Source: Fibrobacterota bacterium (GTDB lineage Bacteria; Fibrobacterota; Fibrobacteria; UBA11236). From it: a stretch of DNA of 64,000 nt. Positions 49,030 through 58,166 of the stretch are shown in pieces (positions within the stretch are counted from its first letter, which is position 1; the number at the start of each line of letters is the position of its first letter). Under the pieces are notes generated by a model. The model saw only the letters and a list, made by a program, of their open reading frames with translations, was not told the DNA's origin and ran no database searches. Both the position numbers and the translations under genes were made by a program. The DNA lies in contig JAYUVP010000249.1 in NCBI GenBank assembly GCA_043753995.1, positions 1 to 64,000 on the forward strand, read 5' to 3'.

Positions 49030-50460
49030 ATGGGGAAAGAAACCATCGCGGCCCCGGCCACTCCTCCGGGAATGTCGGGGCTGGCCATAGTCCGGCTTTC
49101 CGGACCGGATTGCCCCGCTGTTCTATTACACTGCCTGGGGCGTACTCTCGGAGTTACCGAAGCTCCGGAGTTACCCAAGGCCTCGCAGAAGCCGGTGCGC
49201 CCTCGGCATATGCATTATGGCGAGTTTCGCCATCCCGAAACCGGCGAAACGCTGGACCGGCTCACCTTCGTCTATTATCCCGCGCCTAAAAGCCCGACCG
49301 GCGAGGATGTGCTTGAGCTCTTCCCCCACGGCAATCGCCTGCTGGTCGAAAATATTCTGCATGCCTTATTGACCTTACCGGGCTTACGCTTGGCCGGCCC
49401 CGGCGAATTCACGCGCCGCGCCTGCGAGAATGGCAAGCTCGATTTGGTGCAAGCCGAAGGCCTCATGGCCTTGGTTCATGCCCAGTCGCAGGCCGCCTTG
49501 CGACATGCCGGACGCGTGCTGGACGGCGCCCTCTCGAAGCGCTTCTTGGCTTTACGGGGCAAACTGATTGACTTGCTGGTTCACCTCGAACTCGATGTCG
49601 ACTTCGCGGAAGAAGAGGCCGATCCCGACTATGCCTCTTGGCGTCCCCGCGTGCAAGACGCGCTCGCCGACATCGAAGCCTTGCTCCGCAGCCATGATCG
49701 CGGCGCCCGCCTGGAGCGCATCCCCCGCGTGGTCTTGCTGGGCGCGCCTAATGCGGGCAAAAGCAGTTTGATCAATGCCTTGCTGCGCGAGGAAAGGCTT
49801 TTGGTTTCCGACATTCCCGGTACGACGCGTGACTTCGTCGAAGTGCCTTTGCATTTGCCTTCGGGGCTAGTGCATTTGGTCGACACCGCGGGGCTGGGCG
49901 AAGCTGTCGATAGCCTGGACGCTCGCGCCCAGGGAAAAACACGCGAGCAAGCCGACAAGGCCGATTTGCGACTCTGGGTTGCCAATGGTAACGCACCGGT
50001 CGATGCGCTTGCGTGGGCGGGAGATCCGCTCCAGACACTTGCAGGGGACGTCACTCCAACCATACGGGTGCGCACGCGCCGTGATCAGCCTGGCTTTTGC
50101 TCTGAGGTCGGAGCCCTAGCCGTCGCCAATACCACCGGCGACGGTTTGCCTGAATTGATGGAAGCCCTGGAGACGATTTTGTTTGCGCCCGCCAAGGTTG
50201 TCAGATTAAAAGCTCCCGATGGGCAAGCAGGGGAAGGGGCCGACGAGGTTTTCCTCACCACGGAGCGTCAGCGAGAGGCCTTGGAAAAGGCCGCCGCGAA
50301 TTTGCGCGCGGCATTGAATCAGCTCGATGGCCAACCCGCCATTGAAATTCTCGCCTTCGAAGCGCGCGAGGCCGTGCAGGCACTGCGCGAATTGCTGGGC
50401 GAGGTGAGCGCTGACGATGTGCTCAATCGCTTGTTCTCAGGGTTTTGCATCGGGAAATAG
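49030..50460 (+). CDS. mnmE: tRNA modification GTPase MnmE
   Basis: TIAAPATP, GEFTRRA, DLVQAE, GAPNAGKSS, PGTTRD, DTAG, FCIGK. Confidence 0.96.
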   Translation: MGKETIAAPATPPGMSGLAIVRLSGPDCPAVLLHCLGRTLGVTEAPELPKASQKPVRPRHMHYGEFRHPETGETLDRLTFVYYPAPKSPTGEDVLELFPHGNRLLVENILHALLTLPGLRLAGPGEFTRRACENGKLDLVQAEGLMALVHAQSQAALRHAGRVLDGALSKRFLALRGKLIDLLVHLELDVDFAEEEADPDYASWRPRVQDALADIEALLRSHDRGARLERIPRVVLLGAPNAGKSSLINALLREERLLVSDIPGTTRDFVEVPLHLPSGLVHLVDTAGLGEAVDSLDARAQGKTREQADKADLRLWVANGNAPVDALAWAGDPLQTLAGDVTPTIRVRTRRDQPGFCSEVGALAVANTTGDGLPELMEALETILFAPAKVVRLKAPDGQAGEGADEVFLTTERQREALEKAAANLRAALNQLDGQPAIEILAFEAREAVQALRELLGEVSADDVLNRLFSGFCIGK

Positions 50461-50520
50461 TCCGATCGCAGTAGACCCAAACATATGGGCGAGGGAAAAT
50501 TCCGCGCTGGGTTCCGGGCC

Positions 50521-51441
50521 CTAATGGGTTGAAGCTGGCGTCGAAGTGCGTCCCGCTTGGGCTCGCTTCAATTGTCGCAGCATATAGTGCAAGGATTCCG
50601 AGGAATAGCCGTGCAGCAGCAATCGGAAACCTGCGCGTAAAGTGGAAAGCGGCAACATGGGGTGGCGATTGTTCACTCGCCACAAACGCGAATCGTCGTC
50701 TAGCAAAGTCGAGACATATATTCCAATTGTTTCGTCGAGTTGCAGGGAATTCGAAGCCCGCCAAAAGTCATTGTCGGAAAGTAGGAACTGGAAAATCGGA
50801 GTATAAATCTCGATGGCGGTTTCGACGTCCATGAAATTATGCCAGGAGTCGGGCAATTCTTCGAATTCGAAAGGCCCGTCGGTAATGGCTTGCAAGTTTA
50901 TCGTCGTGACGGCATGCAAAACCTTGCCTTCTTTCTGCAAGGTTTGATTCAGGCGAATGATGAAATTGAAGAGATTGATATCATGAAACAGGAAAAGGTG
51001 GTCTTTCACATCGGCCAGTCGCTTGGGCTTGAGTGGGTTGAGTGGAATATCGACCCCGCTATTGTCTCGAATGAATTCGAGAATTTCGGAACCAATGTGG
51101 AAATGCCTCATGATCAGCAAATTCGCTTCGCGGCTGGCAAAATACCGGAGTCCCAAATAAATGAGGTGATGCAAAAGCCGTGACGACTTGAAAGCAGAAG
51201 GAAAGGGTGTTTTCAGCACCATAATTAGGCAAATCAAGGTGCGCATGATGGGCCGGAGCAGGGGCAAAAGGAATTGCCGAGTCTTGGATTGCAGCCCAAA
51301 CAGCAAGGCGCCCTTCACTTCGGGATCTATGGGCGTAGAATTGTCGAGAAACAAAGCTTGGGTAGGCAGCGGATCTTCCGGATCATGCTTCAGCCCGTTG
51401 AAATAACTTTGATACCGGGTATGGCGCGTATTTTCAGTCAT
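50521..51441 (-). CDS. Conserved hypothetical protein (DUF6999-like), last gene of the lipid biosynthetic operon
   Basis: LFLDNSTP..RQFLLPLLRP, RHFHIGSEIL, ASNSLQLDET, NNRHP. Family recalled from memory. TAATG coupling to the upstream gene. Confidence 0.6.
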   Translation of the reverse strand: MTENTRHTRYQSYFNGLKHDPEDPLPTQALFLDNSTPIDPEVKGALLFGLQSKTRQFLLPLLRPIMRTLICLIMVLKTPFPSAFKSSRLLHHLIYLGLRYFASREANLLIMRHFHIGSEILEFIRDNSGVDIPLNPLKPKRLADVKDHLFLFHDINLFNFIIRLNQTLQKEGKVLHAVTTINLQAITDGPFEFEELPDSWHNFMDVETAIEIYTPIFQFLLSDNDFWRASNSLQLDETIGIYVSTLLDDDSRLWRVNNRHPMLPLSTLRAGFRLLLHGYSSESLHYMLRQLKRAQAGRTSTPASTH

Positions 51442-53318
51442 TAGTAATTGCCTATTTCTTCGAGTTGCAACCGGTAGAGGCGTGCCGTGGTTTTGGCTGC
51501 TTTTACGATTTCATCGGCAAGCATTGGGGTCAAGGGTAAAAGTTTCATCGCCGTATGCATTTCTTCGAGGTGATGCTCGTCATTGTGACCGTGATAGAGA
51601 AGAAAGGACACCGCATCGGAACTCAGTTGAAGGGCCCTTTGGATTTTCTCGCCCCAAGCCTTGGCCAGGTTTTTTCCAAGTCCTTCGATGATAAAAACCG
51701 AGCCTAGCATGTGAAAAGGATTTTCCCTTCCGGCCTGGTGAAACATATAAGCGGAAAAGGCCTCGGATCCAATATTCTTGGGATGGGAAAGTATGTCCCC
51801 GCGTTCGCCCCCGGAGGCGACATAGTTGGCTTCGAGCATGCGGAAATCGCGGTGCTCATCCCAGGAATGCTTGAGATAGAGAGAGCGCAATTCAAAATGC
51901 TCCGTGGTGATATTCGAGGCCGCTTTGGAAATCCAGCGACTGCCCTCCATGACTTGCTGGCGCAGGTTGAGAAGCAATTCCCTGTAGTCGGATCGGGTTA
52001 AGTTTCCGGTCTCGATTTTGTGGATGAGGGATAACTTGCTTAGTCCCAATTCGAAATCCGACCACACCAGGAAGAGGCGACGGAAAAGGGAGGCCAGTAA
52101 ATCCTCGCCCGGCTGAAGCGGGATGTCGCTCGGAGTGGCGGATATTTCTTGTTGCGCCGGTAACAATGATTTTTTTTCCGTTGGCGATTCGCCGACTACG
52201 GTCAATAGCATAAAACTGGTGATAAAGCGACCGCTCTCGGGGACTTGGCAAAGGATTTTCTGCCCGGATTGAAGCCGTCCCGATTGCCATAGTTCTTCGA
52301 GCATGATCAACAGGGAGGCCGCGCCTGTATTGCCCTTGTGATATAGGTTGGTGAACCACTTATGCGCAGGAATGTCGGCCAGGCATTTCTGCAATAGGTC
52401 GACGATTTGATCCTTGAAGACATGCGAGGAATAGTGACAAAGAAACCAGTCGAAATCGGGTTTGAGCTTGCCCTCTTCGATAAGCGAGAGATAATGCGAC
52501 ACACCCAAGGGGACGATTTTGTCGAGCATGGCGAGATCTTGTCTTAGGGTAAACAGACCTTGCCGAACGGCGTCACCATAATTCGCCATTTCTCCCGTGG
52601 TAACCCGTATGCTTCCGTCTTCGGATTTTTCACCGCCGGCATACATGCAAACATCCAGGCTATCGGCATGTGATTTCAAGTCTATCCACTCGATACGGAG
52701 GGATAGGCCACTTTCCTTGGGCCGGTCTTGCAGAAGCGCGGCGCCCGCACCATCCGACAACATCCAGCGTAAAAATTCGGTGTCGAGCGGTATGCGCTTC
52801 TCATTCTGAAAGCTGTCTAGTTCTTCGAGTATCGGGGCCCGGAATTGACGGCTGGGAAATTCGCTGCCGCAAACCATGCCGGTCTTGTGCTTGCCGCAGG
52901 CAATGGCGTGATAGGCCCCTTGAAGCGCGGACATGACGCTCGCGCAAACACCTTGAAAAGAGGCGACATCGCAGCAGGCGATCTTGGCTTCGCCTTGCAC
53001 CATGCTCGAAAAGCCGGGTACGAAGAGATCGCCTTGGGTGGTGGCGGTGGCCAAATAGTCAATACCCTTGGCGTCGATGGAGGAGTCTTTGAGGGCGGCG
53101 TGAATGGCGAGGGAAGCCATTTGCGCATTGCGATGTGTGGGTTTGCCATTTTCGTCGAGAGCATAATGGCGGGTTTCGATGCGATTGAGTTTGAGCACTC
53201 GCTTTTTCGCGATCGATGGCTTTCCTCCCACGAGTCCGAGTCGCTTCTCGGCGGCTTCGGAGTCTAGCGCGGGTCCAGGAAGAAAGGCTCCGAGCGAAGT
53301 GATATAAACGGGTCGCAT
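51441..53318 (-). CDS. StlD/DarB-type ketosynthase III fused to a C-terminal heme-oxygenase-like (iron redox) domain
   Basis: Triad GVCAS, CHYSS, GNTGAAS; FLRWMLSDGAGA and VPESGRF typical of DarB/StlD; C-terminal QVMEG..HSWDEH..IEG..HGHNDEHH ligands. Confidence 0.85.
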   Translation of the reverse strand: MRPVYITSLGAFLPGPALDSEAAEKRLGLVGGKPSIAKKRVLKLNRIETRHYALDENGKPTHRNAQMASLAIHAALKDSSIDAKGIDYLATATTQGDLFVPGFSSMVQGEAKIACCDVASFQGVCASVMSALQGAYHAIACGKHKTGMVCGSEFPSRQFRAPILEELDSFQNEKRIPLDTEFLRWMLSDGAGAALLQDRPKESGLSLRIEWIDLKSHADSLDVCMYAGGEKSEDGSIRVTTGEMANYGDAVRQGLFTLRQDLAMLDKIVPLGVSHYLSLIEEGKLKPDFDWFLCHYSSHVFKDQIVDLLQKCLADIPAHKWFTNLYHKGNTGAASLLIMLEELWQSGRLQSGQKILCQVPESGRFITSFMLLTVVGESPTEKKSLLPAQQEISATPSDIPLQPGEDLLASLFRRLFLVWSDFELGLSKLSLIHKIETGNLTRSDYRELLLNLRQQVMEGSRWISKAASNITTEHFELRSLYLKHSWDEHRDFRMLEANYVASGGERGDILSHPKNIGSEAFSAYMFHQAGRENPFHMLGSVFIIEGLGKNLAKAWGEKIQRALQLSSDAVSFLLYHGHNDEHHLEEMHTAMKLLPLTPMLADEIVKAAKTTARLYRLQLEEIGNY

Positions 53319-53332
53319 GAATGTCCTGAGGT

Positions 53333-54265
53333 TTAGACGGGCGAAGGGGAATGGGCAGGTGCAGGAGCTTGCAAGGAATCGGATCGGCGAAAATCGAAAG
53401 TTCGATAGCGGCGAACGAAATGCTGTAAGACGAAAATTTTCAAGAAGTAAAAGGCGAGACTAGGCTCATTCAATTGGGGATGGATCCAATGACGTAGGCG
53501 ATCGTGTTCCTTAGGCCATTGCGACCAATGCATGTTGATATTGCGGTGATGGACAAGATGATAACCGTGATTAAAGGTGATGCGGTTCAGCCAAACGCCG
53601 ACGAAATTTCGGCTGGAATCATAGGGGTGATGGGGGGCTGTGTGATGATGTTGAAAATAGCCGGTGCCTACCATGGCCAAAACGCCGAAGGCTTGCGGCA
53701 AGAGTAGGGCATAGGCGGTGGTCTTCGCGTCGATTCGCCAGAGATAAAGGGTCAAGGTAAGCCAAGCGGCGATTTGCAGCGACCAAAAAAGGCCGAGCCG
53801 AAATCCCGAGGTGTTCCGAGGTTTCGCCATCAAGGAAAGCCAATAAAGGAAGCTTGCCCGAAAGTAAACCCTGACTCCATGCGCGAGATAACGAAAGAAC
53901 TGCAAAAAATTATTGTGATGGGAATAACGGTAGGTGTAAGTGTAATCGTCGCTGCTGTTGGCATAACGGTGGTGATTGGCATTGTGCGTCGCTTTCCAGG
54001 CATAGCAGCCATCAAAGCGGTAGAGGGTGAAGAGGAATTCGATGGCGCGATTGGCCAACCTGGAGCGGAAAAAGGGCCAATGGCCGTGACAATGCTGAAT
54101 GCAGCCGACCACATAGGTGATTAAAGCGGTGAGCACCGAAAGCCACAGGCGCGGCCCTATCAGGAAGTGCCAAGTCACGAGTAGCGGATAAACAGCCAAG
54201 ACGCCAAGGCAGCGAAGGTCTTGTTTGTTTCTAAGGCCTAGAACGGAAGAAGACGCCTGCGGCAT
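53333..54265 (-). CDS. Membrane fatty acid desaturase
   Basis: His boxes HCHGH, HNANHH, QHHH, HLVHH. Confidence 0.88.
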   Translation of the reverse strand: MPQASSSVLGLRNKQDLRCLGVLAVYPLLVTWHFLIGPRLWLSVLTALITYVVGCIQHCHGHWPFFRSRLANRAIEFLFTLYRFDGCYAWKATHNANHHRYANSSDDYTYTYRYSHHNNFLQFFRYLAHGVRVYFRASFLYWLSLMAKPRNTSGFRLGLFWSLQIAAWLTLTLYLWRIDAKTTAYALLLPQAFGVLAMVGTGYFQHHHTAPHHPYDSSRNFVGVWLNRITFNHGYHLVHHRNINMHWSQWPKEHDRLRHWIHPQLNEPSLAFYFLKIFVLQHFVRRYRTFDFRRSDSLQAPAPAHSPSPV

Positions 54266-54268
54266 GAC

Positions 54269-55033
54269 TTATTCCGCCGGGCTATGCGCGCGACGACGGT
54301 AGCCCGAGGCCAGCCAGCGGTCAAGCCAGGGCGTCCAGAAGCCGAAATTGCGTGTCGCCTTGCGGTGGTGGGTGCCATGGCGCCAATTGTTTTCCAGAAA
54401 ACTCGCGCCTTGAGTGTGGGTTGGCCAGGAGAAATTGGCATGCCCGAAAGTATTGGCAGTCATGCTGATAGCCGGCCAAAGCATGATGGCGAGGATGTCG
54501 AAGTCATGCACAAGCATGATGAGAATCATGGTTCCGCTATAGAGTAAGGCCTCGAACCAGTGAAAGCTAAGGCTACTGAAAGGCGTAGTGGTCACGCTGT
54601 AATGATGCACGGAATGCACACGACGAAAAAGGAAAGGTCTATGCAATAACCAATGGCAGGAAAAGAAATAAAGCTCATTCCAAGCGGCGAAGAGAAGCAA
54701 GTCGCCGAGTGCGCGTACTAGGGAAAAGTCTTTCCATAAAATGGTGAGCATTCCATGCTCTTCCAATTTGAGCGCTAAAACCGCGAAGAAACTGAGAAAA
54801 AGCATGGCACTCATGGACTTCCGAATTTCATGGCCTATTTGACCCGCCTTGATTGGGCGGTTGTCGATATAAAATCCCAGTTTCCGTTTGATCAGAACGT
54901 CACGAATGAAAAGGAAAGATATGGCGGACAAGGAAAAATAAGCCACCAAAAAACCCGCAATATGCCAGGCATAGTATTCGGGCCAACTCAGACTATGCGA
55001 CAGCGTTTGCAGGGCGCCGAAGTCGAGCATCAC
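54269..55033 (-). CDS. Sterol desaturase/fatty acid hydroxylase family protein
   Basis: HWLLH, HSVHH, SFHWFEA, GH, HGTHH..NFG. Confidence 0.9.
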   Translation of the reverse strand: MMLDFGALQTLSHSLSWPEYYAWHIAGFLVAYFSLSAISFLFIRDVLIKRKLGFYIDNRPIKAGQIGHEIRKSMSAMLFLSFFAVLALKLEEHGMLTILWKDFSLVRALGDLLLFAAWNELYFFSCHWLLHRPFLFRRVHSVHHYSVTTTPFSSLSFHWFEALLYSGTMILIMLVHDFDILAIMLWPAISMTANTFGHANFSWPTHTQGASFLENNWRHGTHHRKATRNFGFWTPWLDRWLASGYRRRAHSPAE

Positions 55034-55800
55034 GATTTCTCCAAGGGCTCGTCATAATTGAAGCGGGCCGAACGCGTCCGGAAAGTTTCGTCGAACCAGG
55101 GAAAGGCAAAACCGTAATTGCCCTTGATATGGGTGTGATGCAAGGTGTGTCGACGGCAAGAAGAGAAAAGATGATTCAAGGCGAGCTTGGGAAAAACGGC
55201 ATAATTCATATGGCCGATATTGTTCATGAAAAGACTCAAAGCCGGGAAGAGAATGATGGCTCCCATGCTCAGAGGCGCGAAGGCCATATAGGTCACCATG
55301 ACGCTGCTCAGCAAGACGGCTTCGAACCAGTGAAAGCTATAGGTCGAAAAGGGAGTGGGCACAACCGAAAGATGGTGATGCCGATGCACATGTCGGTAAA
55401 ACCAGGGTAGGTGCAAGAGATAATGCGAGGCATAGAAATGAACTTCATTCCATAAGGTGAGCAGAATGAGATCGAGGACTAGACGCCAGGGTGAATGAAT
55501 CCAATCGATGTGAATCAGGCCCAGCCGCTGCAAGCCCAAGGTCAATCCACCATAAGCGCCGAAGACGAGAATGGAGATTAAGGAAAGTCTCACTTCACGC
55601 GTGATTTGCCGGGGTGGAATGGGGCGTGAATCGATGACGCGGCCAATTTTGAAAGTCGGAAGGACTTTTTGGGTGAGCTGAAGCGTGATAAAAGCCAGGG
55701 CGAAGTAAATGAAAGCAAAACCGAGTGCAACTAAGGCGGCAATTTGCCAGAGCCTAAGTTCGAACATGAAATCGCGTAGTCCGATTTGCAAGGCCGTCAT
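55030..55800 (-). CDS. Sterol desaturase/fatty acid hydroxylase family protein
   Basis: HYLLH, HRHHH, SFHWFEA, GH, HTLHH..NYG. Confidence 0.9.
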   Translation of the reverse strand: MTALQIGLRDFMFELRLWQIAALVALGFAFIYFALAFITLQLTQKVLPTFKIGRVIDSRPIPPRQITREVRLSLISILVFGAYGGLTLGLQRLGLIHIDWIHSPWRLVLDLILLTLWNEVHFYASHYLLHLPWFYRHVHRHHHLSVVPTPFSTYSFHWFEAVLLSSVMVTYMAFAPLSMGAIILFPALSLFMNNIGHMNYAVFPKLALNHLFSSCRRHTLHHTHIKGNYGFAFPWFDETFRTRSARFNYDEPLEKS

Positions 55801-56039
55801 GCTGCGCTTTCTAGGCGAAGTATCACATCGCCAATGGTGGCGGCGGCCATCAATTCTTCCAAAGGGATTTCAGCCAGGCCGCTTTGATGCAGTTCATACT
55901 CCAATTCGAGAGCGCTTAAAGAGTCGAGCCCTAAATCCTTTTTCAAGGACATATCATGGCTCAGGGATTCGACTGGGCGATGGGAGACTCGGCTGATGGC
56001 TTGCATCACCTTGATTTCAATAGCAGGCATACGGGTCAA
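55797..56039 (-). CDS. Acyl carrier protein
   Basis: DLGLDSL phosphopantetheine site; TIGDV. Confidence 0.88.
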   Translation of the reverse strand: MTRMPAIEIKVMQAISRVSHRPVESLSHDMSLKKDLGLDSLSALELEYELHQSGLAEIPLEELMAAATIGDVILRLESAA

Positions 56040-57250
56040 TCTTGATGACGCGAAAAAAGGAGGGAAACATTATTCGAGCCGAAACCGAAAGAATTCTTGA
56101 GGATGTTTCGCAATGGCGCATGTTGATTCGCCGATTCAGTCGCTGTCATACCTTCCTGAAGGTGAAAGGCTTGCGGCAATTGCTGCTTCATCAAGGCTTG
56201 GACGCATAGAATGGATTCGAGGATACCACAAGCCCCAAGACTATGTCCGATTTGGTTTTTTGGAGCCACCACGAGCTTGCCGCCGAGTTCCTTGCCAAAT
56301 ACCGAATGCATGCCGAGATATTCGACTTCATCATTCTTCAGGGTACCGGTGCCATGCGCGCAAATGGCATCGATATCTTTGGCCTCTATTCCGGCGCAAG
56401 CTAAGGCTTTGTGCATGACGGCAATAATATCGCTCGCATCGGGCTTCGGTGCGACTGGATGATATGCACCTGAATTCTGTGCCACGCCGGAAAGCTTTGC
56501 CAAGATCGGTGCGCCACGCCTGCGCGCCGACTCTGGTGATTCAAGTATAAGGAAGCCAGCTCCCTCGGCGAGTATAAAGCCGTCGCGCTCCGGGTGAAAG
56601 GAGCGTCCCGGCTGCAGGGGATCGCGTTGGGCGCTGAGCACTTTCAATTGCTTATAAGCATGATAATTGAAGGGTGAAAGCGGGGCTTCTGCGCCGCCCA
56701 CCAAAGCGATGTCCCATTGCCCAGTAGCGATTTTCCAAAAGCCTTCAGCAAGGGCATTTGCGCTTGAGGAGCAGGCCGTAGAGATGCAGAGGTTCGGACC
56801 GGTAATGCCGGTTTGTTGGGCTATCCATGACCCCAGGGCACTGGGCATCACCTTGGGGACGGTGAAGGGATGTATCGCGCGCATGCCTTCTTGCAAGGCT
56901 TTGGCGATCATTTCTTCATGAAAGTCCAGACCACCGAGACCACTGCCCAGGCAAATGCCGATGCGATAGTCGGAAGTGTCGCCGGACAAGCCCGCTTGAT
57001 CCAAAGCCTCGCGGGCAGCGATGATACCTAAGTGTACGCAGCGAGCAGAGCGAGCGAGAATTTCGGGTGGTAGTCGCTTGGCGACATCGATATGGACCTT
57101 GCCAACCAAAACCGGATCGATAGCAAAACCGTCCTGAAATGAGAATTGGGCTTTGCCGGAAGACATTTCATCCCAAAAAGCATCTACTCCGCAGGCGCGG
57201 CCGACGAGCGCACCCAAGCCGGTGATGACAGGAAAGGTTACCATCAACAA
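56036..57250 (-). CDS. Beta-ketoacyl-ACP synthase (FabF-like)
   Basis: VITGLG, STACSSS, AHGTGT, KNQIGHSLGA, NSFGFG. Confidence 0.92.
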   Translation of the reverse strand: MLMVTFPVITGLGALVGRACGVDAFWDEMSSGKAQFSFQDGFAIDPVLVGKVHIDVAKRLPPEILARSARCVHLGIIAAREALDQAGLSGDTSDYRIGICLGSGLGGLDFHEEMIAKALQEGMRAIHPFTVPKVMPSALGSWIAQQTGITGPNLCISTACSSSANALAEGFWKIATGQWDIALVGGAEAPLSPFNYHAYKQLKVLSAQRDPLQPGRSFHPERDGFILAEGAGFLILESPESARRRGAPILAKLSGVAQNSGAYHPVAPKPDASDIIAVMHKALACAGIEAKDIDAICAHGTGTLKNDEVEYLGMHSVFGKELGGKLVVAPKNQIGHSLGACGILESILCVQALMKQQLPQAFHLQEGMTATESANQHAPLRNILKNSFGFGSNNVSLLFSRHQD

Positions 57251-57259
57251 CCCCTCAAA

Positions 57260-57841
57260 TCATTGCTCTTGCTCGGGCATATCGAATAAAAAACCGATCT
57301 GAAAAAACATCTCTAAGTTGGCTGACGCCCCACGCCTAACAAACGAGTTATTGTTCGATCCCATGGGAATAAAAATCTCGATAGCATTTCCGGCGGCCAT
57401 CTTAAAGTGACCCGCCTGAAAATGGAATTTGCCCCCTGGTGCAATGAGGGCGTCCTCGGATTTGAAGGAACCATAGTAGTCGCGCTCACGATAATACCGA
57501 TATCCGAATTCGATTTCAGGAGTAAAGCCCCAGCGGTAGCCCTGCCAAACGCTATAGCCAAAATAGATGGACGGGCTAAGGTATTTGCTTGTCTTCGACT
57601 GGGTCTGAATTTGAATCAAATTGATAATTCCCGGCTTTAAACCGAATTCAAAGCGATCCACATGTCTTTCCAAAAAAAGTTCGATGGGAAAAATGCCAAC
57701 CGTGCCTCCGCTATAGCTACGGTCAACCTGGGATTCTCCAGCGGAGGACAAAATGAAACCGACTTGATTATCATAGGCGCTTGCTCCAGAGTGAAACAAG
57801 GGCAAGGTGCTGAGCAGGAATAAAAACCGCGGTAGGAACAT
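57260..57841 (-). CDS. Hypothetical exported protein, possible small outer-membrane beta-barrel
   Basis: Signal peptide (..SGASA); alternating aromatic beta strands; FQIGFLF near the C-terminus. Confidence 0.5.
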   Translation of the reverse strand: MFLPRFLFLLSTLPLFHSGASAYDNQVGFILSSAGESQVDRSYSGGTVGIFPIELFLERHVDRFEFGLKPGIINLIQIQTQSKTSKYLSPSIYFGYSVWQGYRWGFTPEIEFGYRYYRERDYYGSFKSEDALIAPGGKFHFQAGHFKMAAGNAIEIFIPMGSNNNSFVRRGASANLEMFFQIGFLFDMPEQEQ

Positions 57842-57866
57842 GGGGTGCAAAGTAATATTCCCAATC

Positions 57867-58166
57867 ATGAGCCAGCCTTCGTCATCCCATGATTCTTGTC
57901 GCCAAAAGCCGGGTCTTTTCAAACCCATTGTCAATCATTCGCGCTGTGAAGGCAAAAGCGATTGCGTGGTGGTCTGTCCGGTGAATGTTTTCGAAGTGCG
58001 CCGCATCGAAGATTCTGATTTCGCGGCACTAGGCATACTGGCCAAGGTCAAAGTCATGGTCCATGGCAGAAAAACGGCCTATACGCCCCGCGCCGAGGCT
58101 TGCGAAGCCTGCGGCCTATGCGTCACGGCTTGTCCGGAAAAGGCGATTCGCCTGATGAAGGTTTAA
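57867..58166 (+). CDS. Ferredoxin-family protein (dicluster type)
   Basis: CEGKSDCVVVCP and CEACGLCVTACP. Confidence 0.85.
   Translation: MSQPSSSHDSCRQKPGLFKPIVNHSRCEGKSDCVVVCPVNVFEVRRIEDSDFAALGILAKVKVMVHGRKTAYTPRAEACEACGLCVTACPEKAIRLMKV

Follow-up and report, generated by a model that had tools for sequence, protein, structure and literature searches.

A conserved module of a DarB-like ketosynthase, a heme-oxygenase-like domain and a DUF6999 protein, and a candidate DarA-independent route to ring lipids in a Fibrobacterota bacterium

In the biosynthesis of dialkylresorcinols, the ketosynthase (KS) DarB joins a beta-ketoacyl and an enoyl thioester into a carboxy-cyclohexanedione, and DarA aromatises this ring with decarboxylation (PMC6836626, PMC10088813, PMC13748660). 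In a stretch of 64,000 nucleotides from a Fibrobacterota bacterium (contig JAYUVP010000249.1; hereafter the window), an operon of seven open reading frames (ORFs), all on the minus strand at 50521..57250, encodes a DarB-like KS that is fused to a heme-oxygenase-like dimetal (HDO) domain and followed by a DUF6999 protein, while DarA is missing. The locus therefore raises the question of what stands in for DarA, and what the operon makes. We found that the system conserved between genomes is a three-part KS-HDO-DUF6999 module, of which the window operon is a lipid-tailored version. To judge from the sequence, a ring-shaped lipid is the likely product, reached by a route so far undescribed; the reading that we favour, at a probability of roughly 0.4, is that this lipid is of the dialkylresorcinol type and that the HDO domain takes over the DarA step.

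The conserved core and its distribution

The core comprises three parts, given here in the order of transcription:

52188..53318, minus strand: core 1, StlD/DarB-like KS domain (ACP_syn_III), residues 1-377 of the fusion protein, with C125, E153, H295 and N330
51441..52118, minus strand: core 2, HDO domain, residues 401-625 of the fusion protein; PF14518 (Haem_oxygenas_2) at 33 bits, over the cut-off
50521..51441, minus strand: core 3, DUF6999 protein of 306 aa; full-length match to the DUF6999 Pfam model at 372 bits

The first two are encoded in one ORF of 625 aa, in which ACP_syn_III and Haem_oxygenas_2 were both detected when the cluster ORFs, eight including a possible additional gene described below, were scanned with Pfam models over cut-off; for the KS and the FabF-type enzyme, NCBIfam curated cut-offs were applied as well. 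Apart from distant paralogues of FabF (30-31% identity) and one distant HDO, the genes of the operon are single-copy in the genome.

Besides the window's own, we collected 63 DUF6999 loci (18 from GTDB, 32 from metagenomes, 2 from plasmids and 11 from genome regions) and mapped their neighbours within 7 kb. Where at least 2.3 kb of upstream DNA was present, the order KS-HDO-DUF6999 was found in 48 of 49 loci, one of which has a desaturase inserted before DUF6999; the one locus that departs from it, L110, consists of a DUF6999 remnant of 40 residues. Among the 14 shorter, contig-limited loci, 12 have the HDO or KS plus HDO directly upstream, one has a desaturase and one has nothing. Depending on the lineage, KS and HDO form one fused protein or are encoded by separate adjacent genes, and the gene order is kept down to 29% DUF6999 identity, on a Pseudoalteromonas plasmid. 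A Nostoc plasmid carries an apparently broken set, and one metagenomic protein (P0023) reads as a KS-HDO-DUF6999 triple fusion, either real or an assembly frameshift.

The synteny that the preliminary description proposed to look for is thus strong for the core but does not extend to the rest of the operon: genes for FabF and acyl carrier protein (ACP) occur in 0/63 loci, a hydroxylase and desaturase pair in 4/63 and the desaturase alone in 1/63. DUF6999 proteins are numerous (at least 3000 proteins, counted as protein clusters, among 3916 candidates), and 517 of 2229 HDO matches are of fusion length. The distribution is patchy, with DUF6999 in 7/401 Pseudomonadota genomes and in 4/251 and 2/201 genomes of two other phyla, each count including one centre genome chosen for carrying DUF6999 (6/400 for Pseudomonadota without it). 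It was also present in one of 14 control genomes, that of Caulobacter vibrioides. In the searchable literature, whose scope left out subscription papers and supplements, no description of the module or its product was found.

A DarB-like ketosynthase where DarA is missing

A search of the 401 Pseudomonadota genomes with NF005293 at E <= 1e-60 returned 18 DarB-family KSs, which separate into a high band (561-608 bits, 11 KSs) and a low band (302-364 bits, seven KSs). The genomes of the low band are exactly the seven that encode DUF6999. All 11 KSs of the high band, which score over the cut-off, have a gene of ~305 aa upstream, which we take to be darA, and these genomes lack both DUF6999 (genome-wide) and an HDO within 1.5 kb of the KS gene. 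The ~305-aa protein gave a weak flavodoxin/FMN-reductase match in one of the two that were scanned. On the downstream side, each of the 11 canonical darB genes (L070-L080) is followed by a conserved gene of ~135 aa, and in 10 cases one of ~330 aa comes next. A profile built from the 11 putative DarA proteins found no match at E <= 1 in a six-frame search of the window's own genome, which is 97% complete, and none in any of the 63 HDO-type/DUF6999 loci. The preliminary description, which saw no DarA at the locus, is hence borne out genome-wide.

The window KS itself stands close to this family. Its best solved relative is the StlD structure 5GK0 (E 2e-81, against <= 1e-9 for other KS III enzymes), and it is 38-44% identical to DarA-linked DarBs. 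C125, H295 and N330 are present in 58/58 KSs of the window type, and position 153, which aligns with the StlD glutamate that we presume to be catalytic, is Glu or Asp in 58/58. The columns that are invariant in DarB and common to both KS groups are C125, E153, R184, Q260, H295, N330 and the motifs MLSDG and PESG. However, the window KS scores below both curated StlD/DarB cut-offs (387.9 < 450 for NF005293 and 348.4 < 550 for NF053539). A missed cut-off need not mean different chemistry, since the KS of a Streptomyces plasmid (NZ_CP108315, L088) also stays under the NCBIfam cut-off at 381.9 bits and yet adjoins a DarA-like gene, which the DarA profile matched, ACPs and FabF; its position in the KS tree has a support of only 63. 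This Streptomyces locus (L088:6709-15116) encodes an ACP, the DarB-like KS, the DarA-like protein, a FAD monooxygenase, SCP2, FabF, a P450, an ACP and FabG and reads as an orphan resorcinol-type cluster with a KS outside the canonical DarB clade; two more Streptomyces plasmids gave similar KS and DarA-like matches. Plasmids of Bacteroides and Prevotella (L089, L090) carry a third, orphan arrangement, with KSs of the DarB clade and neither DarA nor HDO/DUF6999 nearby.

Among known systems, those for dialkylresorcinols, bacterial stilbenes and bartolosides (DarABC, StlCDE and BrtCD) share with the window an StlD/DarB-like KS with the Cys-His-Asn triad and the StlD-type Glu, and an ACP in the cluster. 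The window differs from them by the lack of DarA, a KS that scores below the cut-offs on a separate branch, the HDO fusion and the DUF6999 gene that comes next. A DarAB cluster with a desaturase has been proposed for microcarbonin (PMC6836626). Cyanobacterial DarB homologues resemble the window KS in having no DarA, and according to reviews the products of such homologues are unknown (PMC6836626, PMC10088813); an HDO or DUF6999 partner is not mentioned in the passages of these two articles that were compared.

Since the KS lies outside the canonical clade and under the cut-offs, it might not cyclise at all; its product could instead be a pyrone or a linear beta-keto acid from head-to-head condensation, to be decarboxylated or oxidised by the HDO to an unsaturated ketone or a related lipid. 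NocG, a stand-alone KS, can indeed release linear beta-keto acids, and in OleA, NocG and PpyS, stand-alone KS III-type enzymes joining two acyl chains, as the window KS is predicted to do, the catalytic Glu sits 24-26 residues before the Cys (PMC9486936). Among the residues listed at the corresponding columns (99-101), Glu occurs in 0/58 KSs of the window type, in contrast to the StlD-type residue at position 153, and the far closer match to StlD and the DarA-linked DarBs likewise makes a non-cyclising KS improbable.

A putative route and the readings that compete with it

The fold of the HDO domain is assigned from several lines of evidence: besides PF14518, its profile matches 3DDE (E 5.5e-14), hhalign aligns it at 97.9% to the second HDO of the same genome, and its model is all-helical with a pLDDT of 94.6. 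By sequence profile it shares the fold of the HDO enzymes UndA, BesC, SznF, AetD, HrmI, PolF, MboA and CADD. Predicted ligands are E488, D491, E545, H576, D580 and H583, next to an invariant H484; all seven residues are invariant in 120/120 fusion proteins and in 24/24 diverse domains, whereas H489 varies. E488, E545 and H576-x3-D580-x2-H583 match canonical ligand positions, so that five positions agree and the first His does not: in both alignments D491 stands opposite the His of the ExxH motif. The core is thus predicted to be of a 2-His/4-carboxylate type, unless H484 also binds. The canonical set consists of three His and three carboxylates (PMC13185094), and the sets given in a 2026 review, which covers some dozen characterised enzymes, are 3H/3C, 3H/4C and mononuclear (PMC13108848); neither the invariant Asp at the first His position nor a fusion to a KS appears in its listing. 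The second HDO gene (L069, G000:C85:472-4511) has the canonical HxxxExxH motif and lies in a small orphan cluster between two genes with weak FeeM/GNAT (N-acyl amino acid synthase-like) domains.

The DUF6999 protein is all-alpha with one hydrophobic helix (aa 58-76), and its confident predicted model gave no clear match to a solved structure. Its invariant residues are H113, H153, D154, D205, D236, H277 and E282, which makes it a candidate metalloenzyme that is putatively membrane-associated. The earlier suggestion of a cyclase finds no support, as this His/Asp/Glu set points to a putative metal site and DarB-type KSs cyclise unaided (PMC10088813, PMC6836626).

The following chemistry is inferred from what was observed here: which genes are present and in what conserved order, which residues are kept, and how the KSs divide into DarA-linked and HDO/DUF6999-linked ones. 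The dedicated FabF and ACP would supply acyl-ACP chains, which the two hydroxylase-family enzymes and the desaturase may unsaturate or hydroxylate, either ahead of ring closure or once the ring is made. The KS, to judge from its residues and family, would form a 2,5-dialkyl-4-carboxy-cyclohexane-1,3-dione by condensing a beta-ketoacyl thioester with an alpha,beta-unsaturated acyl thioester. The ring carboxylate would then coordinate to Fe1 of the HDO. In UndA, an HDO that decarboxylates fatty acids oxidatively, the carboxylate of the substrate sits on Fe1 in this way (PMC13108848). Loss of CO2 and the adjacent C5-H would give the ene-dione tautomer of a resorcinol, the same two-electron change as that brought about by DarA. 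Fusion or translational coupling of KS and HDO could ensure that the labile beta-keto acid reaches the HDO before CO2 is lost spontaneously. In the last and least certain step, DUF6999 might further oxidise the ring or service the HDO. What speaks for the HDO as the replacement of DarA is that the DarA step, as a two-electron oxidative decarboxylation, is of the UndA reaction type and that HDO and DUF6999 occur exactly where DarA is missing.

Several points weigh against this reading. With Asp491 at the first His position the canonical ligand set is not present, and UndA-like reactivity cannot be assumed. Whereas one enzyme is enough for aromatisation, two partners are retained strictly, and the operon may therefore end in something other than a simple resorcinol; a warning that homologues without DarA may not make carboxy-cyclohexanediones has also been given (PMC6836626). 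The HDO-linked KSs have fixed residues of their own (R157 in 57/58, G254 in 58/58), and in a quick, unrooted tree built from 38 of 78 KS rows, whose split recurs in a larger tree, 24 of them lie across a branch of 0.68 (SH-aLRT 99) from 11 DarA-linked and 2 orphan KSs. As far as its sequence tells, the KS probably works most like DarB but falls outside DarB by cut-off, clade and partner; the comparison with DarB/StlD enzymes drawn earlier holds for the closest structure and the residues kept, but not for membership of the canonical clade. Furthermore, the loci are not all independent, as five pairs have identical KSs. The ~305-aa protein is presumably DarA by its position and has no curated NCBIfam model.

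The strict retention of two partners, together with the carboxylate-rich, non-canonical HDO site and the invariant His/Asp/Glu set of a DUF6999 protein without a clear fold match, would also suit a KS that makes the cyclohexanedione and an HDO and DUF6999 that go beyond aromatisation, by hydroxylation of the ring (giving a quinone or triol), C-C cleavage or ring contraction, to a new scaffold. HDOs are known to catalyse C-C cleavage and rearrangements (PMC13108848). We regard this as the main rival, somewhat less probable than the favoured reading, as a clean swap for DarA is most simply explained by the same job being done by another enzyme. In its broadest and equally tentative form, KS-HDO-DUF6999 might be a distinct class of ring biosynthesis, in which a 2-His/4-carboxylate HDO and a metalloenzyme of new fold would act in tandem on the cyclohexanedione to give an oxygenated, cleaved or contracted ring; the window operon would then be its most fully equipped version, with a chain-building and triple chain-oxidation module of its own.

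Alternatively, the HDO could act upstream and desaturate acyl-ACP to feed the KS, with DUF6999, which has the size of DarA and is equally conserved, as the DarA substitute. Some HDOs, such as PolF and MboA, can desaturate (PMC13108848, PMC13185094), but the HDOs characterised so far bind their substrate by a free carboxylate, and an acyl-ACP has none; moreover, DarB systems draw their enoyl-ACP from primary metabolism and have no such enzyme (PMC6836626). This arrangement seems quite unlikely to us.

Chain genes, genomic setting and meaning

Upstream of the core, the operon encodes predicted enzymes for chain supply and tailoring, listed here together with a possible eighth gene:

57260..~57841, minus strand: possible eighth gene without a family, start uncertain, 15 bp upstream of the FabF ATG
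56036..57244, minus strand: FabF-type beta-ketoacyl-ACP synthase II, 402 aa; Pfam ketoacyl-synt at 126.5 bits; alternative TTG start at 57250
55797..56039, minus strand: ACP, 80 aa from TTG; PF00550 at 34.8 bits; DSL motif with Ser40
55030..55800, minus strand: fatty-acid hydroxylase/sterol-desaturase family membrane enzyme 1, 256 aa; PF04116 at 73.7 bits; His boxes, three hydrophobic segments
54269..55033, minus strand: fatty-acid hydroxylase/sterol-desaturase family membrane enzyme 2, 253-254 aa; PF04116 at 66.6 bits; His boxes
53333..54265, minus strand: membrane fatty-acid desaturase family enzyme, 310 aa; PF00487 at 70.1 bits; HCHGH, HNANHH and HGYHLVHH

The tight coupling of seven genes described earlier was confirmed, with gaps of -4, -4, -1, +3, +14 and -1 bp in transcription order and overlapping stop and start codons between many of the genes, and so were the intact catalytic motifs of FabF, the ACP, the KS and the three membrane enzymes, all of which have their His boxes. 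The three desaturases of that description resolve into two PF04116 paralogues, 38% identical to each other, and one desaturase, which has generic FA_desaturase matches only and for which no homologue was found on plasmids. The window FabF is likely a divergent, dedicated paralogue: it scores below the NCBIfam fabF cut-off (305 < 493.75), is 30-31% identical to the other FabF-like genes of the genome and keeps C158/H297/H334, as do 12 close relatives. The Pfam scan found no AMP-binding domain in the eight cluster ORFs, in line with the earlier remark that no acyl-AMP ligase is visible, and no OleBCD-type or fatty acyl-AMP ligase gene in the cluster. JamABC-type and polyyne desaturase cassettes, which we take to be defined by such a ligase with an ACP and a desaturase, thus have a ligase without a counterpart here.

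Homologues of the hydroxylase and desaturase precede KS::HDO in the window's order in four loci (L063-L066) from unrelated proteobacterial genomes, and the desaturase homologue alone precedes the KS in L067; these enzymes are accessory and not part of the conserved module. FabF and ACP appear to be tied only to this lineage's version of it. FabF has 11 close relatives at 62-90% identity, after which identity drops to <= 44%. Among the seven KS::HDO relatives that are closest (71-74%), five agree in source and in the size of the longest contig (10228, 11848, 68906, 8966 and 9828, four being only 9-12 kb) with one of the close FabF relatives; in three of these pairs a DUF6999 relative matches that contig size as well. 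This is indirect evidence that the extended, FabF-containing operon is conserved within the lineage. That the FabF-ACP-hydroxylase block is an unrelated lipid module standing by chance before the core could be argued from the absence of FabF and ACP at all other loci and from the two closest FabF relatives (P0396, 90%; P0397, 67%), which have no such counterpart among the KS::HDO or DUF6999 matches listed. Given the pairing, the overlapping codons throughout and the recurrence of the hydroxylase-desaturase order in unrelated genomes, we consider such a coincidence very improbable.

Accessory genes at other DUF6999 loci support the lipid reading in being lipid-acting, namely further desaturases (L001, L023, L027) and an MFS-acyltransferase-AMP-binding protein in 4 of the 63 loci; MFS transporters occur in 12 and TetR in 7. 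An unlabelled protein of ~190 aa without a Pfam match flanks the core in five loci from different phyla (among them L002:10864-11436, L021:7684-8238, L027 and L062), and its His/Glu-rich motifs, seen by eye, suggest another membrane metalloenzyme. The eighth ORF is possibly a member of the operon. It has no Pfam or NCBIfam match and no homologue in the 63 related loci, and by eye shows a signal-peptide-like start and an alternating aromatic/beta pattern. It abuts or overlaps (57260-57841) a divergent 4Fe-4S ferredoxin gene on the plus strand (57807-58166), which leaves little space for an operon promoter. The ferredoxin could be a reductant of the HDO; its DNA match in G012, a genome without DUF6999, suggests a resident gene.

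At its other end (region 49030-50521 of the window) the cluster converges tail-to-tail on a gene that is mnmE-like by its motifs, stopping 60 bp short of the stop of this gene; the region around it reads as rpmH-rnpA-yidD-yidC-mnmE. The 3' end of trmE (mnmE) is a known integration site of islands in other bacteria. In the cluster the GC content at third codon positions is 0.54-0.61; the ferredoxin gene has 0.59, whereas three flanking genes reach 0.68-0.70. When 40 relatives were searched at the DNA level, little matched beyond the mnmE-like gene, the ferredoxin gene of one genome and two weak stretches of G008. DUF6999 is rare, in 2 of 41 relatives including the own genome and 2 of the 201 genomes of the phylum. 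The operon fits an acquired island on these grounds.

Collectively, these data uphold the earlier proposal of a dedicated, undescribed pathway to a condensed lipid in its lack of DarA, the synteny of the core, the DarB-type residues and the absence of a described product, but narrow the conserved unit to the three-part core, to which the window adds an extended version with FabF, ACP and triple oxidase. The module names replacement partners for DarA, so that what DarA-less DarB homologues make can now be tested directly, Caulobacter vibrioides being one organism in which to do so. Its HDO has a predicted ligand set that the 2026 review (PMC13108848) does not list, and its DUF6999 protein is conserved but gave no clear structural match. 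Given the wide but patchy distribution of the module, its product may be a lipid or signal that is common among bacteria and has been overlooked.

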